64,000 bases of DNA, from IMG/VR virus record IMGVR_UViG_3300037245_003639; one strand, written 5' to 3'. The translations under genes were made by a program, and so were the position numbers. This stretch comes from a virus. The notes under the pieces are model-generated. The model saw nothing but the letters and a program-made list of their open reading frames with translations, made no database searches and was not told the origin of the DNA. The stretch's first letter is position 1. Every line of letters starts with the position of its first letter. Shown piece after piece: positions 41,981 through 61,410 of the stretch.

Positions 41981-42521
41981 CTATCAAGAATGGCAAAAGG
42001 AAGACCGAGCTTTCAATCATCCGGAATTCGATGCGGCAATGAAGAAAGCCCTTGAAGCAGCAGCGGGTCTACCTGACATAATCAAAGATGTTGGCAAACT
42101 GACTCGTCCTCCCTGGAAACCAAACGCCTATTACAATAGAGATGGAGACCAACTCGAAGTCTGGCTATCAGATGAAGAGTCCTATGCACGTTGGATCTGC
42201 CCAGGCGTCACTGTTTATCTGTCAATGGAGACAGAGGAGGTTGTTGGAGTAACTGTTGAAGGCATCAAAAGAAAAGTTCAGCATCATACTCTTGAAATCA
42301 AGGAAGAAGCTTGGGAGGCCGATGAGCGTATAATAACCATAGATGGTGCTGCTGTGGGCAGAACTTTGAGCAAACAGGATGCCAAAATTGTTGAACAATG
42401 GTTACAGTCAGCAAAGAGCGAATTATGGACCTCAAAGTCGTTAGCGGGAACCTCTTCGAAGCCACCGAGCGATTCATCTGCCACCAATGCAACTCCGTCA
42501 CCAACCGAGGAGCCAATTTAG
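41946..42521 (+). CDS. hypothetical protein with low-complexity Ser/Thr/Pro C-terminus
   Basis: 191-aa ORF. Confidence 0.45.
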   Translation: MRSMDMHWKNFDYQEWQKEDRAFNHPEFDAAMKKALEAAAGLPDIIKDVGKLTRPPWKPNAYYNRDGDQLEVWLSDEESYARWICPGVTVYLSMETEEVVGVTVEGIKRKVQHHTLEIKEEAWEADERIITIDGAAVGRTLSKQDAKIVEQWLQSAKSELWTSKSLAGTSSKPPSDSSATNATPSPTEEPI

Positions 42522-42919
42522 CAAGAGCTATGTTTGCTCACTTCCCTTGGGCAGATATCTATTCATCACGTTCTAAACCACATACTCCATCTTCTGAGGA
42601 ACTCCCAGGTAATATAATCATTCGCGGTAACGGAGAGAATGAACGTCTTGTCGTCAATATGATGGGGCAGTATTACCCCGGCTCGCCACGTTACCCTGAT
42701 TCAAAACGGGATGGCGTCCAAGTCCGTCAAAAAGCCTTTGCAAATTGTCTTGACCAAATTGCTCAAATTCCTTACCTTGTCAGTGTAGCATTCCCGTGGC
42801 AGATCGGTTGCGGAGCAGCCGGAGGCGACTGGATCGTATACAGGCATTTGATACGGGAGTTTGCGGAGAAAGTCGATGTCCCCGTTCGCGTATACAAGCT
42901 TCCCAATGAGAGTTCGTAA
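42425..42919 (+). CDS. macro domain (ADP-ribose binding/processing) protein
   Basis: MDLKVVSGNLFEATERFICHQCNSVT..GANLARAMF resembles the macro-domain N-terminal strand and Gly-rich loop; N-terminus overlaps the upstream ORF in another frame. Confidence 0.5.
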   Translation: MDLKVVSGNLFEATERFICHQCNSVTNRGANLARAMFAHFPWADIYSSRSKPHTPSSEELPGNIIIRGNGENERLVVNMMGQYYPGSPRYPDSKRDGVQVRQKAFANCLDQIAQIPYLVSVAFPWQIGCGAAGGDWIVYRHLIREFAEKVDVPVRVYKLPNESS

Positions 42920-43338
42920 TGAATCGGAGCCCTGGGCTTGCGCATGTGGAGTTGTATGTTGATAATGTAAAGAAGACGACGAAAGGACGATTGCAGAGTT
43001 TCAGCGTAGTTGCTCGACGCCGATTGCCTTCCCATCGTAGACTCGGAAGCTTACATATTTGCGTCGAAGATTGCGGTAGAGCATATGTCGGTAACGTGGA
43101 AATAGTATCGACTTGGCGAGACAGAAAGCTCGGAAAGGCTTTGTATCGTCTCGCTATCTCCTATTACGGAGAACTTAACACCAGATTTGAAGAAGCATCG
43201 ACCCCTGCCCAGCGAGTTTGGCTGAGTTTGATAAACTCAGGTGAATATAAGTACGACTGGCAAGAAGGCACGTATTTGTGCATATGGCCCAAGGGACAAC
43301 GTAGGAGATCGAAATGTTCTGGGAACTCTTCATCGTAG
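42919..43338 (+). CDS. GNAT-like acetyltransferase (putative)
   Basis: VGNVEIVSTWRDRKLGKALY resembles the GNAT motif A R/Q-x-x-G-x-G/A. Confidence 0.35.
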   Translation: MNRSPGLAHVELYVDNVKKTTKGRLQSFSVVARRRLPSHRRLGSLHICVEDCGRAYVGNVEIVSTWRDRKLGKALYRLAISYYGELNTRFEEASTPAQRVWLSLINSGEYKYDWQEGTYLCIWPKGQRRRSKCSGNSSS

Positions 43339-43967
43339 GTAGTATCTGGTTCTGGTTTTTGTCCGCAATCTTAGGAAGTTTCTTCTTATATAACATCTTC
43401 CATGAGAAGACCCTCGGAGCAACGTCCTCCCTGATTATCTACGGGTTGGTCATCTGTTTCTTCGGCAATTTCAATGTCTTTAGTTGGGTTTGGGATAACC
43501 CCTGGGAATTGCTGAAATGGGGCGGTTCTTACGTTATCCTTGGCGTTTTATGGTCCATACTTCGTTGGTATCTGTTCAATACCAAAGTCAAATATGCTTT
43601 TAACGAAATCAAAACCGCTTTCAAAAAAGAGCATAACATAACAGGCGACGTTCCCAATGAACTAAGGGGGGAGTGGAGACGCTATCTCAATGGCCGTCAT
43701 GACGAATGGGACAGCGTTGCCCGCCATTACGAATGGACGGCTCCGGTTACTATTCGCTCTTTGGAAGATATCATTCCAGCACCAAGGAAGTACCGCCGCT
43801 CCATCATATGTTGGATGACGTTCTGGCCGCTATCAGTTATCTTCTTCCTGTTACATGACTTCATCACTGGGCTTTTCGAAAGATTGTACCAAGCTCTGTC
43901 GAACGTTTATGGCATGATCACGAAATCAGTTTTTGGCAAGATAACCGACGACTTGAAAGAAGTATGA
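43314..43967 (+). CDS. polytopic membrane protein
   Basis: At least 4 hydrophobic helices; Trp/Phe-rich. Confidence 0.5.
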   Translation: MFWELFIVGSIWFWFLSAILGSFFLYNIFHEKTLGATSSLIIYGLVICFFGNFNVFSWVWDNPWELLKWGGSYVILGVLWSILRWYLFNTKVKYAFNEIKTAFKKEHNITGDVPNELRGEWRRYLNGRHDEWDSVARHYEWTAPVTIRSLEDIIPAPRKYRRSIICWMTFWPLSVIFFLLHDFITGLFERLYQALSNVYGMITKSVFGKITDDLKEV

Positions 43968-44042
43968 ATTTCTTTGTATTTCTCTTGACAGGATTTTCAA
44001 TCACGTTACACTGCAACCAGTAATTTTGCTTGGAGAAACGAC

Positions 44043-44546: not shown

Positions 44547-44790
44547 GAGAGGATCGGGGCGAGGGCAGAGGAATGTAACATGTTACTGTCCGGACACGGA
44601 ATGGCAAGGAAAACGACATCCGAGGAATGCATCCTGGTAGCTCAAGCCGCTGATCCCATAGTTGGAAATGGGCGGTATAACAACCCAGACCCGGTAATGC
44701 GTCTAGCCAAGCTGTGAGCTATTCTTCTGCCCGCTTAAACAAGAGCCGTCCGAGGAAACTCGGGCGGCTCTCTGTAATTTCCTGGGGAGG

Positions 44791-45738: not shown

Positions 45739-45755
45739 GCCAAGAATAGATATCG

Positions 45756-46282: not shown

Positions 46283-46396
46283 AATGGCCAAGAAAAAAGA
46301 TATTCCTACCGCAGCACAATTGCGCATATATTCGATTTGGTATCCGCCCGCGTGGGCAAGTTCATTCGGCCGATGCTCGGCCACAGGAGACTCATC

Positions 46397-47386
46397 ATGA
46401 AAGATTACAGTAAGCGGAAAGGCTTCACGCTCATCGAGTTGCTGGTGGTGGTGGCTATCATAGCACTGCTCATCTCCATCTTGCTGCCATCGCTGGCTCG
46501 CGCAAAGGAGCAAGCCCGCATTGCCAAGTGCCTGGCCAACCAGCGCAACATCATGCAGTCCTCGGTCAGTTATGTTATGGACAACCAGAGCGCCGTCTTC
46601 GCGTTCCCTTGGAACGTGTATATCGAGGGCGAACAGCCGCGCCACGACCTTGCAACGGAGTTCATTTGGGGTGGCGGTGTTCCCGATCGCCGTCGAGGAG
46701 AATGGGATCCCACGTTTGGCGAAAATCCCGCCGGACCGGCAAGAACCGACACCTATTGGATCCGACCGATCCACCGACCCATGAACAAATACCTCGACGC
46801 GCAGGTCACCTGGGACCACCCCGAGCGCGTCAAACCCAACCAGATGCGGCACAAGATTCCGATGGATCTGCCTGATTACTTCAAATGTCCTTCAGATAAG
46901 TCGGCGGGCGTGCCGATGGCCGGAGCCACTGGTATCGCCTTCGATGCCGACACTCCATTTCTCACCTGGGAGTGGTGGGGCACGAGTTATCCAATCAACT
47001 GGTACTGGGCGTATTGTTTTTACCCGCCCGCACAACGCCTGATTGGGAGCGCTACTGGCGGACCCGAGGGCGTGCTCGACGGCTCGCGTCACAAGCAGCT
47101 TCTCAAGAGCAAGGAGGTCTCGGGTGCTGCCGAGTGGATCATGTTCTACGAGAACCAGATGAACTTCGCGATGGAGGGAGCCCGCCCGAGAGGAGCACCG
47201 GATGGCGAACCGCGAATCGTCACCGGCTGGCACCGGCAGGAGAACATGCACGCTGCCGCATTCTTCGACGGGCACGCCAAGTATGGCTACTTCGACACGA
47301 CCTACATTGACGGCCCCGCCTGGACTACCTGGCCCAGCCGCAACCAGTGGATGGGCACACCATCGGAACCGTACATCGACCAGTAA
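46397..47386 (+). CDS. type II secretion pseudopilin-like protein (prepilin N-terminal methylation domain + DUF1559)
   Basis: GFTLIELLVVVAIIALLISILLPSL prepilin signal; C-terminal AAFFDGHAKY (H-x9-DG-type DUF1559 motif); markedly higher GC (about 60%) than its surroundings. Confidence 0.7.
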   Translation: MKDYSKRKGFTLIELLVVVAIIALLISILLPSLARAKEQARIAKCLANQRNIMQSSVSYVMDNQSAVFAFPWNVYIEGEQPRHDLATEFIWGGGVPDRRRGEWDPTFGENPAGPARTDTYWIRPIHRPMNKYLDAQVTWDHPERVKPNQMRHKIPMDLPDYFKCPSDKSAGVPMAGATGIAFDADTPFLTWEWWGTSYPINWYWAYCFYPPAQRLIGSATGGPEGVLDGSRHKQLLKSKEVSGAAEWIMFYENQMNFAMEGARPRGAPDGEPRIVTGWHRQENMHAAAFFDGHAKYGYFDTTYIDGPAWTTWPSRNQWMGTPSEPYIDQ

Positions 47387-47399
47387 GTCAGTCCGGGCC

Positions 47400-48990
47400 A
47401 GATTGACAAGTAACAGATTTTGGGAGCGATTACGGAGACAATTTGCATTTCAACAAGCAAAAATTGCTTGTTTTCCTCGGGTTGGTTTATGCAAATTCCG
47501 AGAATATCGTTGATTTTCGTTTGACACGGCGGATTTCTGTGGTATACTACCTTTAGTGATAAACACTACAAAGTAAATAACGGGAAAGACTGGCTAGCTT
47601 CTTTCCCCTCCGGGAGCACCGGGACCGGCGAAAGCCCCCTGGTGCCCTTTTTTTTTGCGGGAGGGGTTTCGAGAGGAGAGCATCGGGTACCTATGGTTCC
47701 TGGTGCCCTCTTTTTTTGTTCGCCATAGGAGGGGGACTCAGAATCTGAGTATAATGTACTGGACGAATGATTCAGTCTCTATCTTCCAGCCGACCAGCAG
47801 TCTTTCCACCGCATGTGGGCATCATAGGGCTGTTAGTTCGTAGGGGAGCTGGCAGATAGGTAAGAGCGGGCAGCAGTTAGGCGACGGCTCTGCCCGCTCA
47901 CTATATATACGCGCTCCCCCAAAAATCAGTTCTGAGCATTCCTAAAGCCCGAATCGGAAAGGACTTGTAAAAAATCACGAAAACCGCCCAATCCGCTTGC
48001 AATGATTTCTGATTGTGGTATACTCCCCCTATCAAGTTGAGAGTAACAAACGGAACGAAACAAAACGATCTTTCAAAAGTAAATAGTGATGAATCCCAAC
48101 CGCAAGCCGACAGGCTTGTGGGGTTTCCAACAGCAGAAATGCTCAAGGGAACTACAGTCAGTCCGTGGGAAACCGACAGGAAACTGGAGACAGTGACCTG
48201 CGGGTACAAAAGCCCAAACTACTCAACGGGTTAGGTGCTGACAAAGCTGACAGCAATGTTAGTGGCGACAGTGACGATGAAGACGAAATTCCAGCAGCGA
48301 TAATATCAAGTTGGTTGGGAGTCTGATTCGGGAACTCACGGCGGGCTTCGGAATTAGGATGGCGTCGATATAAGACTGCCTAGACAAGCAATCGATCACG
48401 GTCGATTGTGGACGGGTTAGGATGAACAAGACGCTCACCTGAGTAGCAAAAAGCGGGAAACGATGCCTGCCGCGAGCGGGTACCAGCAAAAGTTGCACGG
48501 GTAGTCCTAGTTGTCTGCGGGATAGGGTTGATTGCCTTTTGTAGCAGACGATCAACACCCCCTCCTGAATAAGGAATAGGGGCTGTCGAGCCTCGGATAG
48601 CAGGTTGAGCCTAGCGGATATACAACTATTCGCTTAGAGACGACGGAGATGCTTTACTTCGATATCAAATTGAGCCAGGTCGGTATCCATCTGCCGCAAG
48701 TATCGGGACTACGGGCAACCCAAAAGGTAGCCACGAGAAACGAATATGAACGACGGAGGGACCGGAATGAGTCGCGCTTCAAGGTAAACTATTTAGCAGT
48801 GGTCACAGCAAAACTGTGAAGAGTGGAATGCCTCGGAGAGTGCTACTATAAAGGTGACAGGGATTCAGGTTGTTGCTCCGATACCTATCGGGACTTGATT
48901 AATCTCTTGACCCAGACGTGACGGAGTAAGAAACTTCCACTCGGCCCCGGCCCCAGTTGGTAACAACTGAGCCGGGGCTTTTTTTTTGCG
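47400..48990 (+). ncRNA. about 1.6-kb ORF-poor region with internal promoters and terminators; candidate structured non-coding RNA locus
   Basis: No ORF over 75 aa on + and only weak ones on -. Extended -10 boxes TGTGGTATACT at 47531 and 48003, GAGTATAATG at 47747. Intrinsic terminators near 47636..47660, 47702..47722 and 48943..48990 (GCCCCGGCCCC..GAGCCGGGGC + T9). Confidence 0.4.
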
Positions 48991-49013
48991 CGAGACAAAC
49001 CGTATAATAGCAA

Positions 49014-49877
49014 ATGCGTTATGCGTTCTTAACCAATGTGTTTCAGTGGGGACATAGAGGCGGGTCACAAAGTCGGGCTCGCAATATGGAGACCATGTTG
49101 AAGCGACATGCAACCTTCAGCTACAAAGTAGTTAAAAAAGATCACAGACAATTTCTTGATTCGCATCTTATAGATGTAGTTCATATACAATCGAACAATA
49201 AACTGGTCAACCTAGCCATGGACCGGAATATGACAATTATTGTCGGCCCGAACATGTGTTGGAAACAAGCTCCAAAAAAACTGCTTTCATACCCCCGTTT
49301 ACTAAGTGCGGTTATACAGCGCCCCGATCCATTACCCAAGAAACTCAAGCCAACATGGGAGGACCATATCAAATATTTCCCAGCTTTTGTAGACGAAAAA
49401 TTCTTCTGTCCTTCAGACTCTCAAAAAACAATTGATGTTTTGACCATAGGGAAATCGTTTTATTATGACCGCTATGAAACGAACTTAAAGAAAATACATA
49501 CACACATCAAAAAGATGGGATTGCGTCATAAATACTTGAAACGCTATTCTTTACGGGAATTCAGGGATGCTCTCAATCAATCCAGAATTCTATTGTTCCC
49601 CAGCCCGAAGGAAGCAGGTGCAACTCTTTGTCATGCTCTTCTGGAGTGCAGCATGATGAATATCCCGTTTATTGGGCTGAAAAGTGTTGTAATTGAGAGA
49701 GAAAACGAGTATCATCTTAGCAGGGGATTAGGAGCAAGCACGACAGATGAAATGGCAGAGTTTGCCAGAGACATGATTCAGAACTCTGGAGATTACTGTC
49801 CAAGAAAGTGGACGTTGGAACGATATTCAACAAAAGCAGCATACCAGCGTCTAACAGATATTTTGGATGAAACATGA
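49014..49877 (+). CDS. glycosyltransferase (GT-B, family 1/4-like)
   Basis: C-terminal ILLFPSPKEAGATLCHALLECSMMNIPFIG fits the GT1/GT4 E-x7-E-like nucleotide-sugar-binding region. Confidence 0.5.
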   Translation: MRYAFLTNVFQWGHRGGSQSRARNMETMLKRHATFSYKVVKKDHRQFLDSHLIDVVHIQSNNKLVNLAMDRNMTIIVGPNMCWKQAPKKLLSYPRLLSAVIQRPDPLPKKLKPTWEDHIKYFPAFVDEKFFCPSDSQKTIDVLTIGKSFYYDRYETNLKKIHTHIKKMGLRHKYLKRYSLREFRDALNQSRILLFPSPKEAGATLCHALLECSMMNIPFIGLKSVVIERENEYHLSRGLGASTTDEMAEFARDMIQNSGDYCPRKWTLERYSTKAAYQRLTDILDET

Positions 49878-50545
49878 TTGAGACATTTGTCGTTAATCTA
49901 TATAGAGAACCATATGACACCTATGTAGGACGTGCAGGCAAAGGGCAGTTAGGCTATTTTGGGAATCCTTTCACGGGGATGTCCCGCACCGAAAGTATTG
50001 CTCTATTCCGTAAGCATTTTTATGAACGGCTGAAATCAGATCCACTCTTCAACCGTAGAGTCCGTTCACTAAAAGGCAAGATCCTAGGTTGCTTTTGTAA
50101 ACCGAAAGCATGTCACGCAGATATTATCGTTGAATATCTCAATGGGCTTCCTGAAGAAAAGCCAATTCGATTAGCCGTGGTAGGGTCGCGCAGTTTCCGA
50201 GACTGCAAATTCATGAAGGAAATCCTTCAATGGTATGATGTCCAACAGATCATCAGCGGGGGAGCGCATGGGGCTGATCAGCACGCTGCCACTTATGCTA
50301 ACGAACATGGCATACCTTTGAAAGAACTCAAACCCGACTGGGGATATGGCAAATCCGCAGGTTTCCGTCGCAATGAACAGATAGTTGACGCCTGTGATGA
50401 AGTCGTAGCATTCTGGGATGGAAAATCGCGTGGAACAAAACATACCATCAATCTTGCGGAAGAGAAAGGCAAACCTGTATCGATTTATTGGCCGCAGCCG
50501 TCCGTTAAAACATCCATTCCTCATGACGCAATATCAATATTATAA
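49874..50545 (+). CDS. DUF4326-like N-terminal domain fused to DUF2493/SLOG (YspA/LOG-like) domain
   Basis: N-terminal YVGRAGKGQLGYFGNPF...GCFCKPKACHADII; C-terminal RLAVVGSRSF...IISGGAHGADQHAA...VVAFWDGKSRGTKHTI. Confidence 0.5.
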   Translation: MIETFVVNLYREPYDTYVGRAGKGQLGYFGNPFTGMSRTESIALFRKHFYERLKSDPLFNRRVRSLKGKILGCFCKPKACHADIIVEYLNGLPEEKPIRLAVVGSRSFRDCKFMKEILQWYDVQQIISGGAHGADQHAATYANEHGIPLKELKPDWGYGKSAGFRRNEQIVDACDEVVAFWDGKSRGTKHTINLAEEKGKPVSIYWPQPSVKTSIPHDAISIL

Positions 50546-52067: not shown

Positions 52068-52571
52068 ATGAAAGATATGCCTTCCGTAATAACAATTGGA
52101 ACTCCCGGTTCTCCAGATGCATTAGGTGGAGGAACTACTGCCGACGAGACGACGACGGTTCCCGTCATTCCGCCTCAGCAGGGAGAATCTGAGGCTGAAT
52201 CTCGATTGGCCTCTGATGAGAGTACAGGCATCAGTACGGGAAGACCACGATTTCAGGATGAAGATGAACTCAACCTTGTCACTCGACAGGCTATTCAAAT
52301 GGAAGCGGTCAGGCTAATTAGAGTGGAGCAGCAAGTTGTCAACCAAAGTGAGCCGCAGTCAGCCACATCATCGAATGAAGTTGTCGCCCAGGCAACTAAT
52401 AGAACTTATGTATCACAGCAACGCATAGACGATGCCGTGAGAGCATTACAGAAACTACAACGCTCTTGTAATCATATTTATGACAAAGTTTCACGGAGAT
52501 GTCTATACTGCACAAAACATAGAAATTCGCATGTTTATGATACGACCAGAATGATTTTGAATCAAAGTTGA
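52068..52571 (+). CDS. hypothetical protein with Thr/Ser-rich N-terminus
   Basis: 167-aa ORF. Confidence 0.4.
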   Translation: MKDMPSVITIGTPGSPDALGGGTTADETTTVPVIPPQQGESEAESRLASDESTGISTGRPRFQDEDELNLVTRQAIQMEAVRLIRVEQQVVNQSEPQSATSSNEVVAQATNRTYVSQQRIDDAVRALQKLQRSCNHIYDKVSRRCLYCTKHRNSHVYDTTRMILNQS

Positions 52572-53548
52572 AACACACTGGAGTTGATATGTTAGATGCA
52601 TTTGCCAAATATCTGGTAGACGAACGTCATCTGTCTTCAAAGACAGAACGTTTCTACCGAGTGGACGTTCAACACTTCAAACGTTTTCTTGACAACGATG
52701 TATTGCCAACCCGGCAAAATTCTCCCCAGACCAAAGATGTTTTGGATGTTACGAGAGATGATATTCAACTCTTTGCTGATTATCTGACGCGCGACTACAA
52801 ACCCCGCACAATCAATCGCAAGATTGCTGCGCTCGGTGCCTTCTACCGCTTTCTCATCAAGAAGGGTTTTCTGGAGAAATCTCCTATTCATCACGAAAAG
52901 AAACCGGGTGGAGGGTTGGATATCAGAAAACCCCGCGTTCCCAAGGAAGATCTGGTTCATATATCGGATGATAATATCAAGATGTTACTTGAATCCATAG
53001 ACCCAGATAGTAAACTGAGAAAGTTGCGAGACAAAGCCCTTTACAGTCTGATGGCCCTAGCTGGGTTAAAAGCTCCCGAACTACAGTCTATGACTTTGGG
53101 AGACGTGGATATCACTGACAAAACTGTCAAAATAATCCGTAGGAAAGAGTTAGTTTTTATTCCTGTGGACCATGAGTTACTTTCTGTAATCGAAACATAT
53201 TACTTCGCTCGTTTGGACAACAACGACAGCCTCACCGATTCTGACTTTTTGTTTATCAACAAACATGGCAAAAGTCTAAGTTGTCGCAGTATGCGCCGCA
53301 ATCTGGTAAGATACGCGCTGGAAGCAGGTATCCGAGTTAATCCCTCTCAGTTGCGTCATTCCTTTGCCATCAACGCAGTTCGCCAAGGGGTAGATTTGAC
53401 GGTATTGCAGCAACAGCTTGGACACCTTGCTAAGACAACAATGAAAGCTTACAAAATTCCACAGGATATGATTAATCTAGGAGACGCGGCCCCTATCGAG
53501 GAGGTCGAACCCATTGCGGAGGTGACGACTTGTGAGTACGTGGGATAA
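52568..53548 (+). CDS. int: tyrosine recombinase/integrase (XerC/D-like)
   Basis: N-terminal SAM-like core-binding domain (FYRVDVQHFKRFL); C-terminal LRHSFAINAVRQGVDL...LGHLAKTTMKAYKI (R-HxxR-Y catalytic pattern). Confidence 0.75.
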   Translation: MKHTGVDMLDAFAKYLVDERHLSSKTERFYRVDVQHFKRFLDNDVLPTRQNSPQTKDVLDVTRDDIQLFADYLTRDYKPRTINRKIAALGAFYRFLIKKGFLEKSPIHHEKKPGGGLDIRKPRVPKEDLVHISDDNIKMLLESIDPDSKLRKLRDKALYSLMALAGLKAPELQSMTLGDVDITDKTVKIIRRKELVFIPVDHELLSVIETYYFARLDNNDSLTDSDFLFINKHGKSLSCRSMRRNLVRYALEAGIRVNPSQLRHSFAINAVRQGVDLTVLQQQLGHLAKTTMKAYKIPQDMINLGDAAPIEEVEPIAEVTTCEYVG

Positions 53549-53786
53549 CTGGTATTGTCCGAAATGTGGCGCTCATAATCGGGTGGACTTAGGGAATCTG
53601 AATGACCAAACCGCGCCTGACATTGAAGCAGTCGAATGTTATAATTGCAAACATGTCGATTGGATAGACGAACATGCACAGGACTTCTGTCAAATCGAAA
53701 AGCCCGAGGAAGCTTGTTGCGAAGAAGGCCAGCCACCCTGTTCATATTGCGCTGGAACCGGTGTCCGACGTGAAACTAGAAAATGA
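53532..53786 (+). CDS. zinc-ribbon protein
   Basis: CPKCG...CYNCKH...CSYCAGTG. Confidence 0.4.
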   Translation: MSTWDNWYCPKCGAHNRVDLGNLNDQTAPDIEAVECYNCKHVDWIDEHAQDFCQIEKPEEACCEEGQPPCSYCAGTGVRRETRK

Positions 53787-54735
53787 ACTGCAATATCGTC
53801 TTTCATCTGCTGCTGATTTCCTAGAATCCTGCTGGGATGGCAAGCAATTCAGCCATGAGTTCACGCAAGAAGAGAAACCATCGAAAAAGTTCCATGTACT
53901 ACATCATTTACAAGCCATCTCAGTCCTGATATCGCTGGCTGAATTCCTCGGGAGGAATCGCTTGCGATCTATTGCAGATGAAGCTTTTGAACTAACGCTA
54001 TCATGGAAATTCAATAACGGGGACTCCAGCTTCATAGTTTATGATGACGAATCATTTTTAAGTTGGAATGCTCTCACTGCTATCATCCATCTGAAAAGAA
54101 AAGAAATCATCGAGGCCCGCAGTTTTGTGGGTTCTATCCTGGAATGCATCGGGGACGAGACTGTCTCTCCTGTCTATCCCCCCGATTTTGAAAAACCAGC
54201 ATCCTCATTAACAGAAGCCATGTTGGCTCTCATTTTGGTCTCCGCGAAAAACAAAGATGAGGCCCTAGAAGATGCCGCGGCCTATATAGCCGAGATTCTG
54301 CTCAAACAAGGCGTGTTGTACAATCACTACGAGGTATGGGCCTTCACGCTCATGCACAATATCGACCATGATCCCCGTTATCTCCAACGAGCCAGACGCC
54401 AAATCAAAGAATTCAAACAACCTGCTGTTCAAGCCATGACCAGTCTCTTTGCGGCTTGTGCTCAACAGGCATTCTTGGCCGCTTATCCGCACGATGAATG
54501 GTTGGGACAAGATAAAAAACATGCCAATCAGCTTCATATGAAAATTCTGAACCAACAAGTTGCCCTGCAAGTGGACAAAGATAAGTCCTTCAAGTGGCCC
54601 CCTGAATTCTATGGAGCTTTCATCCTGCGTAAGACCCGCCCCAATATCCGCCTGGATTATGTCCTGCAAAATGCCATGGCCATAATGCAATATATTTCGC
54701 ACTTGACAAACCAGAAAGCCCTTGCTATCATTTGA
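53770..54735 (+). CDS. hypothetical alpha-helical protein (start uncertain, possibly GTG)
   Basis: Long ORF in track (53674..54735) overlapping the upstream gene; no recognisable motifs. Confidence 0.4.
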   Translation: MKLENELQYRLSSAADFLESCWDGKQFSHEFTQEEKPSKKFHVLHHLQAISVLISLAEFLGRNRLRSIADEAFELTLSWKFNNGDSSFIVYDDESFLSWNALTAIIHLKRKEIIEARSFVGSILECIGDETVSPVYPPDFEKPASSLTEAMLALILVSAKNKDEALEDAAAYIAEILLKQGVLYNHYEVWAFTLMHNIDHDPRYLQRARRQIKEFKQPAVQAMTSLFAACAQQAFLAAYPHDEWLGQDKKHANQLHMKILNQQVALQVDKDKSFKWPPEFYGAFILRKTRPNIRLDYVLQNAMAIMQYISHLTNQKALAII

Positions 54736-54744: not shown

Positions 54745-55836
54745 TTGAAGATGCAAGAAAGAGAATTCGCGGAGAAATACTGTATCTTTCGGTGCCGGTC
54801 TGGCTCCCATGCTTATGGTACGTCCTTGCCTACGTCCGACGTAGACACCCGGGGTGTATTTATCGCGCCCCCGTCCCATATCCTCAGTTGCGTTCATAAA
54901 ATTGAGCAGGCTGAGGACAAGGCGACCGATACCGTCATCTTCGAGCTGAAGAAATTCATGAACATGGCAGCCAACTGTAACCCGAATATCATCGAGTTGC
55001 TGTTTACTGACGAGCGAAATATACTGTTCATGCATGATACTTTCCGCCGAATCCGAGAGCATGCTCATCTATTCTTATCCAGAAAGGCGAAGCATACTTT
55101 CAGCGGATATGCTATGTCTCAGTTACAGCGTATCAAAGGACATAACAAGTGGATCAACAACCCGCAGCCCGAACAAACTCCGAGCATGGCGGATTTCTGT
55201 CGGTTCATTGGTACGAATGGAGCCGTTCGTCGTGATAATATGGCCATTCGCGCTTTGTCCAAGGTTTGTTTCTTGGCAAAGACTTTTGGTGCAACCCAAT
55301 TTAGGGTTTACCATTCGCCTGAGTTTTTCGCAGAAAAAGTTGGTTTCTTCAACGAAAACGAAACTCAGCCGAAATATGTCAATATTGATGATGAAACGTT
55401 AGCTCGCAGGGCAACGTATAAGGGTTTCTTGTGGATTAACATAGACGAGTTCAAAACTCTCTACAAAGAATGGAGCCAGTATTGGGAATGGAAAAACAAT
55501 CGCAATGAAGTTCGGGCTGAGTTAGAAGCACGGCATGGTTACGATACCAAACATGCTATGCATCTTGTTCGCCTAATGCGTATGGCACAGGAAATTCTTA
55601 CCGAAGGTAAGGTTATTGTTCGTCGTCCTGATGCTGCTGAGTTGCTTCGTATTCGTGCTGGTGAATTCGATTACGAATGGCTGCTCAACTGGGCTAAAGA
55701 AATGGATGAGAAACTCAACGAAGCCGACAAGAAGTCCGAACTTCAGTTTGCTGCTGATTATGAGGGAATTGATGCTCTCTACAGGGAAACAGTTCTTCAG
55801 TATTGGAGAGAACACAAACTCCTTAACTATGCATAA
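54745..55836 (+). CDS. nucleotidyltransferase-fold protein (Pol-beta superfamily)
   Basis: RCRSGSHAYGTSLPTSDVDTRGVFIAP matches the GS-x9-13-DxD Pol-beta-type NTase motif; RBS GGAGTTGAAGATG. Confidence 0.55.
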   Translation: MKMQEREFAEKYCIFRCRSGSHAYGTSLPTSDVDTRGVFIAPPSHILSCVHKIEQAEDKATDTVIFELKKFMNMAANCNPNIIELLFTDERNILFMHDTFRRIREHAHLFLSRKAKHTFSGYAMSQLQRIKGHNKWINNPQPEQTPSMADFCRFIGTNGAVRRDNMAIRALSKVCFLAKTFGATQFRVYHSPEFFAEKVGFFNENETQPKYVNIDDETLARRATYKGFLWINIDEFKTLYKEWSQYWEWKNNRNEVRAELEARHGYDTKHAMHLVRLMRMAQEILTEGKVIVRRPDAAELLRIRAGEFDYEWLLNWAKEMDEKLNEADKKSELQFAADYEGIDALYRETVLQYWREHKLLNYA

Positions 55837-56603
55837 ACTATAGGTGGTGGGTCCGCATCTATATCGGGGGTTGGTCCTGGTGCAGTCTCCCATCCTGTCA
55901 ACAAGCCAGCATCCCGGTTATCATAATCTTCCGGGACTGGTTTGTCTATATATAATCCTCGTGTATCCCAGAAATATTCGCTTCCGAGCAACGTCATCCC
56001 CCCTCCAATATAGGCTCGAAAAGCCTCTGCGAAGGTGGGATAACCGCTTTCTGTTTCCAGTTGGTCTTTGAACCATACCCTCCATATGTTCGGTATATTT
56101 GGAGTGGTGATATCTATTTCGGATGGAACATATAACGAGAAGAATTTGACATGCTTCAAACTGCGTTCATCCTCTATGATGTTCAAAACAATAGGAGTGA
56201 ACCCGGGAGTATCGATTTCTATAGCTCGACCGGCAAAATAAACAGTCAGAGTCTCTAAGTCAGTTCTGTTTGAAATAATAAGTTCTTTGGAAATTTGGAT
56301 ATCAAAGCGATTAGAATAAAGAACTTCACCACCAGAACCACCATCATCAGATGAAATCTCCATGTCCATTCGAATTCTCCTGTCACCCAAAGCAACTTCT
56401 TCTAGAGTGCGAGTGAGTTCGACATGATAACCAGAATTATCAGCGGCCAGAACTGAGAAGACGGTTTGACCTTGGTTCATCAAGAAAATGGATGCGATAA
56501 AATCTTGCGTATTAAGTTCGAAAGAATGAGAATCTACATCCGGAGTATAACTCAGGAGAGTTCTTCCTTTGCGGGGTTTACCAGCAGTCTCATTCACGGC
56601 CAT
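55827..56603 (-). CDS. hypothetical protein
   Basis: 258-aa minus-strand ORF between + genes. Confidence 0.4.
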   Translation of the reverse strand: MAVNETAGKPRKGRTLLSYTPDVDSHSFELNTQDFIASIFLMNQGQTVFSVLAADNSGYHVELTRTLEEVALGDRRIRMDMEISSDDGGSGGEVLYSNRFDIQISKELIISNRTDLETLTVYFAGRAIEIDTPGFTPIVLNIIEDERSLKHVKFFSLYVPSEIDITTPNIPNIWRVWFKDQLETESGYPTFAEAFRAYIGGGMTLLGSEYFWDTRGLYIDKPVPEDYDNRDAGLLTGWETAPGPTPDIDADPPPIVYA

Positions 56604-56696
56604 TTATGGCTCCTCACCGATAATTTCGTGGAAGAGGAGCTGATATCCTGCCTATTTACAGTTGACACGGGCTTTGGTTGCTGGTAAGATGCTTTC

Positions 56697-57395
56697 ATGT
56701 ATTGGTTTACAGCAGACACGCACTTTAATCATGCTAACGTCATCAAATACTGCCAGCGTCCGTTCGCGTCCGTAGATGAGATGAACCAAGCGCTAATTGA
56801 CAATATCAACGAACGGGTTCAGCCAGGAGATACGCTATATCATCTGGGCGACTTCTCTTTTGGGCGTCGAGACAGAAAGACCAATGATGCCGCTAAATAT
56901 CTGGAACGGATCAGATGCAAAAATGTCATGATTATTCCAGGTAACCATGACCCTCATCACGCTAATGGGTTACCTCGTAAAGAGTTTGCCCAATTATTTG
57001 CGGGCTGCTATCCCTTCTTTCGCCTGAAAGCAGAGTTGGCAGGTGTACGCGCTGAAATATTCATGTTCCACTATGCTTGCCGGGTTTGGATGAAATCGCA
57101 TCATGGAACATGGCATTTATACGGACATTCTCACGGTACTCTGGAAGATCTGCCAAACTCAATGTCGCTTGACATTGGGGTGGATTCCCATAATTATCGA
57201 CCATTGAATATTGCGGATATAGCTGCGTTGATGGCTAAGAAGACATTCACGCCAATCGACCATCACGGGGACCAGGGTGGTCTCGATTTGAAGGGAGCAT
57301 TGGCGAAGATTCGGGATTATGACCCCGACGATTCCGACCCGCTGTATCGCAATGCTGTGCGACAGTTCGCAAACGAAGGCATGGGCGAGGGATAA
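56697..57395 (+). CDS. calcineurin-like metallophosphoesterase
   Basis: FTADTHF, GDFSFG and IIPGNHD metal-binding motifs. Confidence 0.7.
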   Translation: MYWFTADTHFNHANVIKYCQRPFASVDEMNQALIDNINERVQPGDTLYHLGDFSFGRRDRKTNDAAKYLERIRCKNVMIIPGNHDPHHANGLPRKEFAQLFAGCYPFFRLKAELAGVRAEIFMFHYACRVWMKSHHGTWHLYGHSHGTLEDLPNSMSLDIGVDSHNYRPLNIADIAALMAKKTFTPIDHHGDQGGLDLKGALAKIRDYDPDDSDPLYRNAVRQFANEGMGEG

Positions 57396-58513
57396 TGCCC
57401 ACTGAACTAAACGTTGACAGGTTGAATCAGAAAGCCCTTGGGGCGCTAGTCGGAGTTGTGTCCGGTGATATCCACGGTCTGCCGGTTGAATGTCAGTCGC
57501 CGACCGCCATTCGCGATAAAGTGGGATACGTGGACGAACCGATTTCCTGCAAACATCATCCTTATAAAAGTGTAGCCCGACGAGCAAAGGGAACAAAATC
57601 GGATGACTCACAATTAACATTCGCCATGATGACATCGCTCACTCGGCAAGGTGGCTACAATCTCGATGATATCAAGAAGGCTCACGTTGAAGCCGCAGAT
57701 GGTGCTTACGGAACTCCTGTAGGATGGGGAGGCTCTACCAGAACTTCTATAGACAAAATGCGGGAAGGCAAGCGAGTTACTATGGCCCCCGAAGGGGCTG
57801 GCAATGGGCCTGTTATCAAGATAACGCCCTTAGCCATCTACTGTGTCTATCGTTGCCTGGAAACTCCGCATCGTCGTTTCACTAACAGCTTCAATCTTTC
57901 TCTATTGAAGAAGTGTAGAGAGGTCAGCCAACTTACTCATGGCGACCCAGCTTGTATCGTTGCTGCCTATTGTCAATGTAGAATGGTGATCCGAGCCCTG
58001 CAAGACGAGCTTCCTAAAGAATCTCGCTCAGTTGCAACTATGTTCATTGAGGATGCTCAATGGGCAGAAGCGCATATCGAGGCTAAAGACCTTCATTTGG
58101 CCCAAAGGATAGAAGATGTTTTGCGTTGGGAGATGGGATTCGCAGGTCCGAGTGTTATAGACGGCCCGATTCAGCGGCGAATGGCCGAGTTGAATCCTGG
58201 TCATTTACGCTCATTCGATATTGAAACTGGACGAATGTCGTCCATGATTTGTACAGAGCATAGTTCGTACATCTATAACTCTTATCCGTTGGTAGCATAT
58301 TGCACAGCAAAATATCTACCTTATAGGAATTTTCGTCATGCTCTATTAGAAACAGTCAACGCTGGAGCAGACGCTGATAGCAATGCCAGCATGGTGGGGG
58401 CCATTATGGGCGCTCATTTGGGCTTTGATGGAATTCCCGAAGAGATGGTCAAATGCACCAAAGATTGGTCAAAAGTGCTTGTCAGAATCAGACATTTTGT
58501 CCGGCATTTGTAG
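57395..58513 (+). CDS. ADP-ribosylglycohydrolase family protein
   Basis: N-terminal ALGALVGVVSGDIHGLPVE (ARH GxxxGxxxGDALG pattern); 372 aa. Confidence 0.7.
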   Translation: MPTELNVDRLNQKALGALVGVVSGDIHGLPVECQSPTAIRDKVGYVDEPISCKHHPYKSVARRAKGTKSDDSQLTFAMMTSLTRQGGYNLDDIKKAHVEAADGAYGTPVGWGGSTRTSIDKMREGKRVTMAPEGAGNGPVIKITPLAIYCVYRCLETPHRRFTNSFNLSLLKKCREVSQLTHGDPACIVAAYCQCRMVIRALQDELPKESRSVATMFIEDAQWAEAHIEAKDLHLAQRIEDVLRWEMGFAGPSVIDGPIQRRMAELNPGHLRSFDIETGRMSSMICTEHSSYIYNSYPLVAYCTAKYLPYRNFRHALLETVNAGADADSNASMVGAIMGAHLGFDGIPEEMVKCTKDWSKVLVRIRHFVRHL

Positions 58514-58649: not shown

Positions 58650-59285
58650 ATGGAGGAAGAAATGGCAGATCTACAGCGACATTCGGATGAAGGCTGGATT
58701 AAAGAAGGGATGATTCTTTATTATGAAACCCCTGATCTGCAAACAGCCAAAGTCACTTCGGGACATCGAGTTGGTCAGACTTTGGAGTTGCCTAAAAAAA
58801 CAGATGTAGAGTTCCGAACAGAAATCCTGATCAAAGTCCGGGTAAAAAGCCGCAGTTTCTATTGCAAAGCTCTTGTCCTTGGAATAAAAGAGAACACTTT
58901 TACAGTCCAATTACCACACACTGGCTGGAAGAGTTTGCCTCGCAAACGCTTCTTCCGTATCAAACTCTCACGGTGGGGCCGTTTCAATGAGAATACTGCC
59001 AACATCAAAGACATATCTGTGGCAGGAGCAGCTATTGAAGTCACTGATCCAAACGGACTCACAGAGGGCATGCAATACAAATTCCAAACCGGTAGATTCA
59101 CCACTTCTGCCAGGATCAACGAAATCACAGGAAATAGGGTCAGAGTTCAATTCCCAATCAGAGACAATCTGAGTATGGACTTGAATTGCATCGTTCGAGA
59201 CTGTTATCGACAAGAAAAGGAACAAGGGATCGGGGAAATAAGGAATAGGAAAACTGAACCTTTTAGTCGAATAGCGAGTGCATGA
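58650..59285 (+). CDS. PilZ domain protein (c-di-GMP receptor-like)
   Basis: RKRFFRIKL (RxxxR) followed by IKDISVAGAAIEV (D-x-S-x-x-G), the two halves of the PilZ c-di-GMP-binding signature; an N-terminal YcgR-like domain is possible. Confidence 0.55.
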   Translation: MEEEMADLQRHSDEGWIKEGMILYYETPDLQTAKVTSGHRVGQTLELPKKTDVEFRTEILIKVRVKSRSFYCKALVLGIKENTFTVQLPHTGWKSLPRKRFFRIKLSRWGRFNENTANIKDISVAGAAIEVTDPNGLTEGMQYKFQTGRFTTSARINEITGNRVRVQFPIRDNLSMDLNCIVRDCYRQEKEQGIGEIRNRKTEPFSRIASA

Positions 59286-59749
59286 AGAATGCTCTATTCT
59301 GTGTCTTAATTTGTCTCACAATGTTCCTTGTGGGCTGTATAGCTTACAAGGACATTGTGCTTCGCCCCGCCTTCGACCATCGTTTTTCGCCTGACGATTT
59401 TGGTTATCAGTTTTCATACGTGCCACTGATAACCGTTACATTTCCAGACCACAGTTTATGCATTCCGCCTATTGTTGTTGTTTCGAACATTTACACGGTT
59501 TTTCAGACCCAATGGGACTATAATATAGAACTACAGATTCAAAGAGTCGATGAGCCTAAACTGTTTATCTACTCGTCCGAGGACGAAGTGGCTCCTTATA
59601 TGGGCGGTCTTCGAGTATTCCAACAGGCTCCAGAACCCAAAGAGCTATGGACGGTTTATGGTGAACATGGAAAAATGGTGCGAGAAGACCAAGAAAAATA
59701 CGAGGAGAAGCTTATCGGCTGGATGAATAGTATTTTACATGCGGATTAA
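59282..59749 (+). CDS. lipoprotein
   Basis: Signal peptide with lipobox LVGC. Confidence 0.5.
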   Translation: MKNALFCVLICLTMFLVGCIAYKDIVLRPAFDHRFSPDDFGYQFSYVPLITVTFPDHSLCIPPIVVVSNIYTVFQTQWDYNIELQIQRVDEPKLFIYSSEDEVAPYMGGLRVFQQAPEPKELWTVYGEHGKMVREDQEKYEEKLIGWMNSILHAD

Positions 59750-59764
59750 TCCGAGGAGACTCTC

Positions 59765-60394
59765 ATGGATAAACAGGATGCTAAGAGAATAGGCAATCAG
59801 CATAGCCCGCTGTTAGCTCAGCTTATCAAAGCTGCTGAAGGTGTAAAATCAAAGGAAGTTACACCATTCAAAGATACCATCATCAAGATTGCGTCAGACA
59901 CCCCACCATCACTCAAGGAAACCCTGGCAAAAATCGCGGTAGACACTGAGAAACGTACCAGATTTATGAAACAAGCTCAGTTTGATACTCCCCCCACTGC
60001 GGAACCTGACTTTGACGGCATGGCCGCTGGCGGAAGCCCGGAGCTGGGAGATACTCCAATGGGAGATACTCCAATGGAAGAATATCCAGATGAAGAACCT
60101 GGTGGCGATATGGAGGAGGCCAAGCAGCATCTCGCCGATGCTCTGGTTTCTCTTTGTGGAGGCGTGGATGAAGCGATGGAATGTCTCCAATCCAGTGGAG
60201 ACATTGGAGATGAACTGGAGATGGGTGAAGAACTTGGCGACGATATGGTTCCATCAGAGTTGCTCGGTGGAGAGCCAGAGCAAGAACCGGAACCAGCGCC
60301 AGCAGATATGATGAAACCCATGGTGCAAGAGCCAATGACACAAGAGCCATCACTTATGGGTCAGAATCCAATCAAACAAACTCCGCTCATGTAA
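59765..60394 (+). CDS. acidic hypothetical protein
   Basis: 209 aa, Asp/Glu/Pro-rich, with repeated DTPMG. Confidence 0.5.
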   Translation: MDKQDAKRIGNQHSPLLAQLIKAAEGVKSKEVTPFKDTIIKIASDTPPSLKETLAKIAVDTEKRTRFMKQAQFDTPPTAEPDFDGMAAGGSPELGDTPMGDTPMEEYPDEEPGGDMEEAKQHLADALVSLCGGVDEAMECLQSSGDIGDELEMGEELGDDMVPSELLGGEPEQEPEPAPADMMKPMVQEPMTQEPSLMGQNPIKQTPLM

Positions 60395-60465
60395 AGTCTC
60401 TTTGTAAAAGAACAAGCCCAGTGCAACTATTGCGCTGGGCTTTTCATTTAAGAGTATAATGTAAC

Positions 60466-61410
60466 ATGGGTACCGAAAACGAACATACTGAGCTTTTCGT
60501 CAAAGGAACTATCATCGGGCATCTCATTGGAGATGCATTAGGATATCCTTACGAAAATGCAGAGAACGTTCTCCAATATCAGATTGAAATGGTCAATGGT
60601 CGTCACGGAGAACTTGATGGTTCCTGGTCAATGCCTGGAGCTTTTGCTTTAGCCACAATGGCCAGCGTCAATGAGTATAACGGTCTCGATCTTGATGATG
60701 TAATGGAAAAGTTCAATGATGTCTACATTGCTGGTTATCTCACTCCCAATCAGGAATGTAAAGATCTCGGACCAACTACGACTGAAGCGATCAAAAACTA
60801 TACCAATGGAATGCCAGTAGATCGTTGCGGGGTCCGAACAGAAACAATGGATAACGATTGTCTGGCACGTATTCTGCCAGTTGGTCTATATTTTGCGTCG
60901 AGTCCAATCGACGAACTCATAGATAACGCTCATATGGTATGTCGCTTGACCCATGCTAATGCTCATTGTGAAGTCACATGTGCAGCGTATTGCATGGTAA
61001 TTCGCAATCTGCTGTTACAGCGGCCTGAGAAGGCTCTCGAATTACTCGATGATTACTATCGAACCAAAAAAATGAATGAACACATACAGGCTTTAGGTAA
61101 CTTTAATGAGTATAGAGATGTAAGAAATCCGACTGGGATCAAACACGTATTCGACAGTTTTTGGAGTGCGTGGAGTTGCCACGCTCGCAACGAACATGAT
61201 TTCGCATGTTGCGTTACAGACGCAGTATATTTAGGGAATGACACGAACACAACTGCTGCTATTGCAGGAGCAATCTCAGCGCTATCGAACGGGCTGAACG
61301 ATATCCCTTATAAGTGGTTACAAGTGCTTAGAATCAACAACGAAGTAATGGAGATTACCCAAACGTTTGTGAATTCGGTGATAGAGAGAAACCTGCAAAC
61401 AGTAGAATGA
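60466..61410 (+). CDS. ADP-ribosylglycohydrolase family protein (second copy)
   Basis: GTIIGHLIGDALGYPYE ARH signature; 314 aa; GAGTATAATG promoter box upstream. Confidence 0.7.
   Translation: MGTENEHTELFVKGTIIGHLIGDALGYPYENAENVLQYQIEMVNGRHGELDGSWSMPGAFALATMASVNEYNGLDLDDVMEKFNDVYIAGYLTPNQECKDLGPTTTEAIKNYTNGMPVDRCGVRTETMDNDCLARILPVGLYFASSPIDELIDNAHMVCRLTHANAHCEVTCAAYCMVIRNLLLQRPEKALELLDDYYRTKKMNEHIQALGNFNEYRDVRNPTGIKHVFDSFWSAWSCHARNEHDFACCVTDAVYLGNDTNTTAAIAGAISALSNGLNDIPYKWLQVLRINNEVMEITQTFVNSVIERNLQTVE

Follow-up and report, generated by a model that had tools for sequence, protein, structure and literature searches.

A conserved metallophosphoesterase-ADP-ribosylhydrolase cassette with a putative ADP-ribosylhydrolase pseudo-enzyme in a huge-phage-like genome

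The closest described counterparts of the proteins considered here are the ADP-ribosylhydrolases (ARHs) Serratia Tri1 (PDB 6dre), Listeria Lmo0067 (8za7) and DraG, which neutralise ADP-ribosylation by the transferase of an antagonist or a partner. Tight coupling of ARH domains to phosphatases, calcineurin-like ones included and sometimes together with Macro or NADAR domains, recurs in bacterial ARH-centred conflict systems, which are predicted to remove macromolecular ADP-ribosylation imposed by an external transferase (Iyer, Burroughs, Anantharaman, Aravind 2022, PMC9503650). On the phage side, the macro eraser AdfM (anti-DarTG2) and the NADAR eraser AdfN (anti-DarTG1) are experimentally proven counter-defences against DarT (PMC13309987, PMC11825919), and ARH domains occur in about 5% of jumbo phages (PMC9503650). 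Phage ADP-ribose erasers, as well as the RlaP and SLOG/DUF4326 genes of jumbo phages, have already been catalogued (PMC7824862, PMC9503650), and the idea of an ADP-ribose 'toolkit' as such is already known. The present work concerns a stretch of 64,000 nucleotides from the IMG/VR virus record IMGVR_UViG_3300037245_003639 (the window), in which the genes for a metallophosphoesterase (MPE), two ARH-family proteins (ARH1 and ARH2) and an acidic protein make up a cassette that recurs in related contigs. The literature searched was found to describe neither an MPE-ARH cassette conserved across a clade of huge phages nor a catalytically dead but constrained ARH paralog in such a cassette.

Both ARHs of the window have the fold and the Pfam family in common with Tri1, Lmo0067-type immunity ARHs and DraG, which were the best sequence and structure matches of ARH2 and among the best of ARH1. 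In contrast to the DraT-DraG and Tre1-Tri1 pairs, no gene for an ADP-ribosyltransferase (ART) was found beside them (divergent ARTs could be missed), and they are located in a phage-like genome instead of a toxin-immunity operon. Their scores remained far below the equivalog cut-offs, reaching 68 and 55 bits with the DraG model TIGR02662 (cut-off 337 bits), and 40 and 73 bits with the Tri1 model NF041672 (cut-off 490). ARH2, furthermore, is devoid of the Asp-Asp and DxD ligands and of the ~70-residue N-terminal extension of Tri1. Compared to the bacterial ARH conflict systems, the cassette is phage-borne, includes an apparently catalytically dead ARH paralog and has none of their Nudix or WYL repressors and chaperones. 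AdfM and AdfN are, likewise, stand-alone phage ADP-ribose hydrolase domains without a toxin partner. The macro-domain protein of the window has the fold, an Asn equivalent to DarG N22 and the Gly-rich loop in common with AdfM, and it could work in the same way, although it is nearer to BT1257/SCO6735 (1e-8) than to DarG (3e-4) and has Ser87 at the position of Lys80. The likeness to AdfN consists in the NADAR gene placed directly after ARH2 in some of the relatives, while the window itself has no NADAR gene. An ARH-family Adf is not reported in the literature found.

An earlier note on this DNA had recognised five open reading frames (ORFs), namely a macro-domain protein, a Pol-beta-type nucleotidyltransferase, an MPE and two ARH-family hydrolases, and had interpreted them as a dedicated counter-defence locus of ~20 kb with three erasers. 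The five ORFs and all five domain calls were confirmed (Table 1). From the profile searches that it had suggested, those for ARH (PF03747) and the nucleotidyltransferase (as RlaP, PF10127) gave matches, while the Macro family gave none at E<=10, and the macro domain was recognised from its matches to solved macrodomains and from its predicted fold. The interpretation as a single locus did not survive the comparison with relatives. A megablast search of 50,697 phage records with the 20-kb interval detected no nucleotide-level relative, ARH1 had no exact match in the contig index, and single-protein scans of IMG/VR with ARH1 and ARH2 returned no relatives; the relatives came from the protein database only, on metagenomic contigs of 116-568 kb. 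Eight related loci (L002-L007, L011 and L012; 9-21 kb each) were compared by mapping the window proteins with tblastn, the window and the related loci together covering <15% of each genome. The first part of the recurrent order comprised DUF4326-YAcAr SLOG, glutamine synthetase, (formyltransferase), Xer recombinase, a clade-specific helical protein and RlaP. Following RlaP came variable genes, MPE, ARH1, the acidic protein, ARH2, (NADAR), CSD and S21. Judged by this gene order, the flagged 19-kb interval is a vertically inherited conserved backbone and not one locus: it also includes a pilin-like gene, a glutamine synthetase, a Xer recombinase, a 1.6-kb ORF-free stretch, CSD and S21, and the macro gene is unlinked in the relatives.

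The true unit, as delimited by synteny, is MPE-ARH1, the conserved acidic protein and ARH2, and it was seen in all eight related contigs. MPE was located at most 2 kb upstream of ARH1 in seven of the eight loci, abutting or overlapping it in five, and ARH2 was located at most 3.5 kb downstream of ARH1, again in 7/8 loci; in the remaining one, L007, it was elsewhere on the same contig (P0223). In L012, MPE, ARH1 and ARH2 are consecutive genes with overlapping reading frames, and in L002, L003 and L011 a NADAR hydrolase gene directly follows ARH2. Since ARH domains are present in only ~5% of jumbo phages (PMC9503650) and the pair is syntenic in 7/8 relatives, chance does not explain the ARH1-ARH2 pair. 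An ADP-ribose-processing cassette does exist within the presumed toolkit, albeit smaller than was assumed: the nucleotidyltransferase belongs to RNA-end repair, the macro gene falls outside the cassette and, with ARH2 catalytically degenerate, two probable active erasers remain instead of three.

The MPE scored 29.8 bits with PF00149 (cut-off 21.5), matched PDB entry 1xm7 at 1.5e-8 and has all of the metal motifs, i.e., DxH (DTHFNH), GD (LGDF), GNHD and GHSH (GHSHG). Its TAA stop, as read from the sequence, overlaps the ATG of ARH1 by 1 nt, and the MPE is translationally coupled to ARH1. In the related locus L003, a LAGLIDADG homing-endonuclease-like gene (8620-9372) is positioned immediately 5' of the MPE gene, whose reading frame extends upstream of the called start (9433 vs 9493 by tblastn). 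ARH1 aligned with PF03747 over its full length (model positions 1-287) at 164 bits against a cut-off of 26.2, and its family includes ~70 members at 43-80% identity, after which the identity drops sharply to <=31%. In an alignment of 160 ARH sequences used for assessing the catalytic residues, ARH1 had the Glu of GDxxGxPxE as well as the SDD[ST], TH and DADS motifs, all of them kept in essentially all of the ~70 orthologs, and it is predicted to be an active hydrolase.

The situation with ARH2 was profoundly different. It also matched PF03747 over the full length (160 bits, positions 1-287, same cut-off), while the window protein has WSMPGAF in place of WSDD and DTN in place of DTD. The Asp-Asp pair was missing in 27 out of 27 database orthologs and in the copies of the related loci, its position being occupied by MP, AP, SA, GP, CH and others; in D-x-D-[ST] either the second Asp was replaced by Asn or the motif was gone (L005, L011 and L012), the Glu was often lost, and the more divergent orthologs were even more degenerate. 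In contrast, the nearest outgroup, formed by bacterial ARHs of Burkholderia, Ralstonia and Paraburkholderia at 31-35% identity (P0240-P0283), retains all of the motifs, with WSDD and DTDT throughout. The residues lost are those probed in the ARH3 D77A, D314A/E and E41A structures, according to the PDB titles, and the same ones are covered by the E-D-D description of DraG (PMC8120803). ARH2 is therefore predicted to have an ARH fold without being a hydrolase.

Despite the loss of catalytic residues, ARH2 does not look like a decaying gene. It retains GDALGYPY, TH, an Asp equivalent to D97 of DraG and DSFWSAW; the ORF is intact in nine genomes with its non-catalytic motifs strongly conserved; and the structure model has a predicted local distance difference test score (pLDDT) of 94.4, with the nearest structures being 8za7, a Listeria immunity protein of ART-ARH type (template-modelling (TM) score 0.85), then Tri1 (6dre) and DraG. 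The identities between pairs of genomes were 82 vs 80, 61 vs 60, 50 vs 48 and 44 vs 44% for ARH2 and ARH1, respectively. Because the Asp-Asp pair is lost in all 27 orthologs and yet the protein has diverged no faster than ARH1, ARH2 is best described from these comparisons as a constrained pseudo-enzyme. A recent tandem duplication was ruled out as the origin of ARH1 and ARH2, considering their identity of 22-24% and different nearest outgroups, and the two genes are evidently independent acquisitions. Among eukaryotes, vertebrate ARH2/ADPRHL1 is a conserved pseudo-enzyme with the ARH fold, which has lost the active-site acidic residues and is inactive as a hydrolase; it is a cardiac protein involved in myofibril assembly. 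It has no evolutionary link to ARH2 of the window beyond the superfamily, and its function is unrelated.

The segment between the two ARH genes is variable. The protein encoded directly downstream of ARH1 (58650-59285) is conserved only in the closer relatives, L002 (65%) and L003 (24%), and its profile search against PDB gave nothing significant (only 4q63 at 0.014). The next ORF, 59282-59749, matches two separated pieces of a 264-aa Hydrolase_4 gene (3883-4677) in L002, the closest relative, which points to gene decay within this variable segment of the cassette. The acidic protein usually lies between ARH1 and ARH2 and had no Pfam or PHROG match; its candidacy as an enzyme was rejected, the protein being acidic, of low complexity and probably disordered.

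The transcription signals were called as consensus matches, which are not proof of function. A promoter-like site TTGACA-17-TAAGAT at 56662-56690 ends 6 nt before the MPE start, and a terminator-like hairpin and a TATAAT box separate the acidic protein gene from ARH2 (Table 1). Because of the latter two signals, MPE-ARH1 through 60394 look like one transcription unit and ARH2 like a separate, probably leaderless transcript. The arrangement TATAAT-N5-ATG occurs six times in the window (9321-9334 on the minus strand, 27595-27608, 29412-29425, 39903-39916, 49003-49016 and 60455-60468) against 0.6 expected, a number reached in 0 of 100 shuffles, and all six sites are placed exactly at ORF starts lacking a Shine-Dalgarno sequence. 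These sites suggest that leaderless transcripts are common in this genome, which also encodes S21. Near-consensus -10 boxes at the same distance were seen in several other genes, such as MPE (56697) and a vault-like gene on the minus strand (33203).

Table 1. Genes and signals of the cassette and its surroundings, with coordinates in the window
Feature	Coordinates	Strand	Evidence and remarks
Stand-alone macro-domain protein, BT1257/SCO6735 (TARG1-like) type as judged from sequence	42425..42919	+	PDB sequence/profile matches, fold model
DUF4326 (rhodanese-phosphatase-like) fused to YAcAr SLOG	49874..50545	+	Pfam DUF4326 1.5e-16, YAcAr 1.5e-9
Unknown helical protein, directly 5' of RlaP	53674..54735	+	Orthologs in 5 loci
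RlaP-family Pol-beta nucleotidyltransferase	54745..55836	+	Pfam RlaP PF10127 1.4e-22, phrog_388 4e-68
Unknown protein between RlaP and cassette	55827..56603	-	Conserved in L002 (75%) and L003 (34%)
Metallophosphoesterase (MPE), calcineurin-like, first cassette gene	56697..57395	+	Pfam Metallophos 1e-6, phrog_547 2e-48
ARH1, DraG-like ADP-ribosylhydrolase	57395..58513	+	PF03747 7e-48, complete catalytic site
Unknown protein, faint PilZ-like signal	58650..59285	+	Pfam PilZ 0.0027, below cut-off
Putative alpha/beta hydrolase gene remnant, internal deletion, lipoprotein-like signal peptide	59282..59749	+	Comparison with L002 gene
Acidic, largely low-complexity protein, two short conserved helical motifs	59765..60394	+	tblastn, 7/8 loci
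Intrinsic-terminator-like hairpin, GC-rich 13-bp stem and T run	60414..60442	+	Appears to close the MPE-ARH1 unit
TATAAT-N5-ATG at ARH2 start	60455..60468	+	-10 box 5 nt before ATG
ARH2, ARH-fold protein without metal ligands	60466..61410	+	PF03747 1.6e-46
CSD and ribosomal protein S21	61531..61969	+	Pfam CSD 3.7e-22, Ribosomal_S21 2.7e-13; downstream border of block

The cassette is read here, tentatively and with somewhat less than an even chance of being right, as an eraser of macromolecular ADP-ribosylation, for which a role in counter-defence is plausible. From the domain identities, the presence or loss of catalytic residues, the synteny and the gene coupling we infer the substrates, a role for ARH2 and a purpose in counter-defence as follows. 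ADP-ribose put on proteins or nucleic-acid ends by ARTs during infection would be removed by the cassette, with ARH1 cutting the ADP-ribosyl linkage and the MPE processing the product, either released ADP-ribose or a phosphate end. ARH2 would be a non-catalytic binder, acting as an inhibitor or decoy of an ART toxin or as a reader of the modification; the former role may be considered because its nearest relatives are immunity proteins neutralising ART toxins. In some of the relatives the cassette would be reinforced with NADAR, and the macro protein and DUF4326-SLOG, encoded at separate places in this genome, would add to its ADP-ribose processing. The earlier note had assumed that such phage enzymes reverse defences based on ADP-ribosylation, naming both DarT and Thoeris-type signalling. 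AdfM and AdfN are proven against DarT; for ARH domains, a preference for macromolecular conjugates over soluble Thoeris-type signals was argued (Iyer et al. 2022, PMC9503650).

A stronger version of the same proposal, which we consider rather unlikely, makes ARH2 the first anti-defence pseudo-enzyme with an ARH fold, binding a host ART toxin stoichiometrically as an antitoxin mimic, or sequestering or reading ADP-ribosyl marks. Its ancestor would be a DraG/Tri1-like immunity hydrolase of bacteria, with catalysis abandoned since, and ARH2 together with the active eraser ARH1 would provide a two-layer defence across the huge-phage clade.

Several points weigh against the eraser interpretation. 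The literature searched gave no experimentally determined role for any phage protein of the ARH family. The cassette is part of a vertically inherited backbone beside metabolic and translation genes and not a variable anti-defence island, a pattern for which a housekeeping role in the phage cycle is just as good a fit. Members of the MPE family occur in 1440 phage records, of which nearly all lack an ARH, and the protein weakly resembles the ligase-associated phosphoesterase PdeM, for which reasons its function may be nucleic-acid end processing instead of ADP-ribose disposal. As to ARH2, the missing N-terminal extension is the toxin-occluding part of Tri1 (the alignment begins at Tri1 residue 70), and the metal loss may abolish its binding of ADP-ribose too.

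That the cassette belongs to the conserved core and not to a variable island would also be in line with self-regulation, in which ARH1 reverses or limits in time the marks set by the phage's own ARTs during a long infection, similar to T4 Alt/ModA/ModB, and ARH2 serves as a regulatory partner. ARTs are common in jumbo phages (PMC7824862), and ART-ARH pairs are present in some Aeromonas phages (PMC9503650). The ARTs would have to be encoded elsewhere in a genome of at least 400 kb, since no ART family match was obtained among the window ORFs or in the Pfam tables of the eight related loci, although divergent ARTs may escape Pfam. Altogether, such a writer-eraser cycle appears quite improbable.

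The macro protein (42425-42919) had no NCBIfam match, similar to Pfam, and none of its 120 homologs has a precomputed Pfam domain. Nevertheless, phmmer against PDB gave whole-length matches to BT1257 (1e-8) and to the Streptomyces macrodomain SCO6735 (2.8e-4), to which a profile of 28 sequences added two DarG macrodomains (3e-4 and 1e-3) and a Poa1-like phosphatase. The AlphaFold model (pLDDT 90.6) had macrodomains as its best Foldseek matches with probability 1.0 and TM of 0.65-0.7, and the same list includes designed serine hydrolases of the same fold (OSH55 series). Asn23, which aligns with DarG N22 after strand 2, and the GCGAAGGDW loop are invariant in the 28 homologs. The DarG FPTK aligns with YPG-x, in which x is variable (Ser87 in the window), K80 being the catalytic lysine of the T. 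aquaticus DarG (PMC13309987); a conserved Arg/Lys located two residues further on (R89) might substitute for it. The PADLOC DarG model matched at 6e-4 over 41 residues only. Because the position of the DarG/TARG1 lysine is variable and the match to the DarG model is this short, the protein is assigned by sequence to the BT1257/SCO6735 type, and its membership in DarG2/AdfM was rejected with the better scores of BT1257 and SCO6735. SCO6735 acts on protein ADP-ribosylation (PMC8120803, table).

In its full length, the macro ORF shares 97 nt with the preceding ORF (41946-42521), and automatic calls on near-identical contigs (L008 3001-3390 and L009 1039-1428) start it at Met36, giving a product of 129 aa deprived of the conserved N-terminal HQCN strand. 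Judged by the conservation of this strand the start at 42425 is correct, and the truncated calls are probably a systematic mis-annotation of the family. Two genes upstream, an R2K-clade ATP-grasp protein is encoded (40966-41805; R2K_3, 2.3e-13), the same as on L008 and L009. Members of the macro-protein family occur widely in metagenomes, also on contigs of 200-500 kb. In the window, the macro gene is 11.8 kb away from the nearest other flagged gene; a search of six loci (L002-L007) did not detect it within 10 kb of ARH1, and in an L003-type phage it occupies a different neighbourhood. By these distances it belongs to the same genome and not to the ARH cassette, and its presence 15 kb from the ARH pair is not beyond chance.

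Such a loose association would agree with the five flagged genes having no common function, i.e., being unrelated accessories on a conserved arm, with only MPE-ARH1 truly paired and ARH2 a decaying duplicate; the many unrelated genes in the interval and the separate transcription of ARH2 point in the same direction. The evidence on ARH2 itself speaks against it: the gene is intact in nine genomes, is as conserved as ARH1, has a confident model and conserved non-catalytic motifs, is adjacent to ARH1 in 7/8 relatives with overlapping frames in L012, and was acquired independently without recent duplication. This explanation is, accordingly, considered unlikely.

The DUF4326-SLOG gene was missing from the list of the earlier note. 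It was found in all relatives with enough flank, L005 retaining the YAcAr half only. DUF4326/SLOG proteins were predicted to process ADP-ribose derivatives (Iyer et al., PMC9503650), and the product of 49874-50545 is predicted to be a protein processing derivatives of NAD or ADP-ribose. Together with ARH1, MPE and the macro protein, it might degrade soluble messengers derived from ADP-ribose, such as Thoeris-type cyclic ADP-ribose isomers and His-ADPR, or toxic ADP-ribose phosphates, with ARH2 as a sponge, a strategy suitable for a non-catalytic ligand binder. The metallophosphoesterase ADPRibase-Mn is able to cleave both ADP-ribose and cyclic ADP-ribose. However, the closest relatives of the MPE are generic phage phosphoesterases and not ADPRibase-Mn, and the metals lost in ARH2 normally hold the ribose hydroxyls of ADP-ribose, so that the binding may be gone. 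Phage Macro, NADAR, SLOG and DUF4326 proteins were predicted to process low-molecular-weight ADP-ribose derivatives (PMC7824862, PMC9503650), in contrast to ARH domains with their argued preference for macromolecular conjugates (PMC9503650). This clearance of signals or metabolites is the least probable of the explanations considered here.

RlaP of the window scored 81 bits (cut-off 23) and has the Pol-beta motif GS...DVD (sequence SGSHAYGTSLPTSDVDTRG). It is a long form of 363 aa, which is 44% identical to the homologs of enterobacterial Vequintavirinae phages (PVP-SE1/rV5-type), with the nucleotidyltransferase motif in common, and 46% over the full length to the L012 protein (5219-6319), while most of the clade members have a short RlaP of ~250 aa with 35% identity to it. 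This suggests either RlaP replacement or two RlaP lineages in the clade. RlaP extends damaged 3' ends of RNA by 1-2 nucleotides (PMC12776372). It is an RNA 3'-end repair protein and a separately transcribed neighbour of the cassette, not a member, because an opposite-strand gene intervenes and RlaP has its own promoter-like site. The family was named for its association with RNA ligase, but no RNA ligase family match was obtained near RlaP in the window or the related loci, and the window gene has instead a clade-specific helical protein upstream. The homologs of the latter (53674-54735) begin near residue 34, and therefore its true start is probably further downstream; the family is confined to the clade, only 52 representatives having been found in a set of 1.84 billion proteins, and gave a weak (alpha/alpha)6 signal of LanC/GH76 type, on which grounds its candidacies as an RNA ligase or an ART were rejected. 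The intervening minus-strand protein (55827-56603) had no family or PDB match, including a profile search against PDB.

The vicinity of RlaP brings RNA or tRNA repair into consideration, in which RNA ends that are damaged or capped with ADP-ribose would be the targets of RlaP, MPE and the ADP-ribose hydrolases, to the protection of the large phage tRNA set and mRNAs. The MPE would heal 2',3'-cyclic or terminal phosphates, RlaP would restore lost 3' nucleotides, and ARH1 with the macro protein would strip ADP-ribose from RNA phosphate ends or, alternatively, clear the ADP-ribose 1''-phosphate produced by NAD-dependent removal of 2'-phosphate. Apart from the RlaP activity itself, the surroundings are suggestive, with 44 tRNA genes located 27 kb upstream and CSD and S21 directly downstream, and the RlaP homolog of PVP-SE1 is placed in a region of tRNA and CCA-enzyme genes. 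For jumbo phages, calcineurin-like phosphoesterases have been predicted to heal RNA ends (PMC7824862), the MPE has the weak PdeM-like match mentioned above, and ADP-ribosylation of RNA phosphate ends is reversed by hydrolases of the macro and ARH types (PMC11833690). On the other hand, neither the window nor the gene tables for the eight related loci revealed an RNA ligase, polynucleotide kinase, KptA/Tpt1 or 2H phosphoesterase, RlaP is parted from the cassette as described, and L006 keeps the cassette while no RlaP was detected there. We regard repair as unlikely, although not negligible.

At the downstream border, the CSD-S21 order is kept in six of the eight relatives (L002, L003, L004, L005, L011 and L012); L006 gave a weak S21-like match only, and L007 had neither CSD nor S21 within the flank. 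The Xer-like recombinase (52568-53548) occupies the same backbone position in three relatives (L006, L007 and L011), which excluded this integrase as the border of a mobile island. The pseudopilin-like gene (46337-47386) has a prepilin-type N-terminal methylation motif and a local GC content of 0.53 vs 0.46, and its matches were generic pseudopilins plus one weak match to a cassette protein of Verrucomicrobia type; the gene may be a faint hint at the host. It is followed by 1.6 kb without a credible ORF (47387-49013), for which a single 78-nt match, to L010, was found in the related loci; an Rfam scan of 40-64 kb and of this ORF-free stretch (47.4-49.0 kb) detected nothing, with the best E of 0.1 in the latter.

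The window as a whole has a huge-phage-like appearance, with dense small ORFs, S21, a cold-shock protein and metabolic genes, and many of its ORFs match PHROG families. It looks like a part of a huge phage genome, its phage status being deduced from such genome features because the window has no virion genes. The 44 tRNA genes are clustered at 1940-27594 on both strands and serve almost the complete set of amino acids, Arg, Ser, Ala, Val, Thr, Pro and Gly having several isoacceptors each; an array of this size is unusually large even among huge phages. An ORF at 34112-34876 (254 aa) matched class II alanyl-tRNA synthetase in its N-terminal catalytic part alone (8.9e-19) and is, by this match, a fragment or a stand-alone domain. 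A vault-protein-like gene on the minus strand (30573-33203, 876 aa) matched the Shoulder domain of the major vault protein at 1.2e-24 and the Vault_3 repeat at 7.5e-8, with no match in PHROG or NCBIfam.

The metabolic genes, listed under 50599-52044, 18638-19813 and the ORFs within 1-40 kb, include glutamine synthetase (50599-52044, syntenic in the relatives), a class I/II aminotransferase and a sulfotransferase. Two nucleoside 2-deoxyribosyltransferase-like proteins, several DNA methyltransferases and HNH endonucleases are also encoded in the window. The ORFs of 1-40 kb were scanned as a batch, in which matches to CN_hydrolase (3.9e-58) and, separately, to the PHROG 'NAD synthetase' (8.4e-24) appeared without being tied to particular ORFs. 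NAD-salvage genes were not detected in the window or the related loci, and the families of NAD+ reconstitution by NARP1/NARP2 (Adps with Namat, or Nampt with NMNAT) were absent from the Pfam matches of the window ORFs.

ADP-ribosylation of DNA, RNA and proteins is an emerging major weapon in the conflict between bacteria and phages, in which only the macro (AdfM) and NADAR (AdfN) erasers have been proven on the phage side. ARH/DraG is a third eraser superfamily, rare in phages and with no role assigned there, and the combination of a predicted active ARH with a constrained, apparently dead paralog in an operon-like cassette of a huge-phage clade offers concrete genes to test. The cassette may point to an unrecognised host defence based on ART or to a new way in which such a defence is inhibited; should the function instead lie in RNA-end repair or in an ADP-ribosylation cycle of the phage itself, a conserved core block of these genomes would still gain a function.

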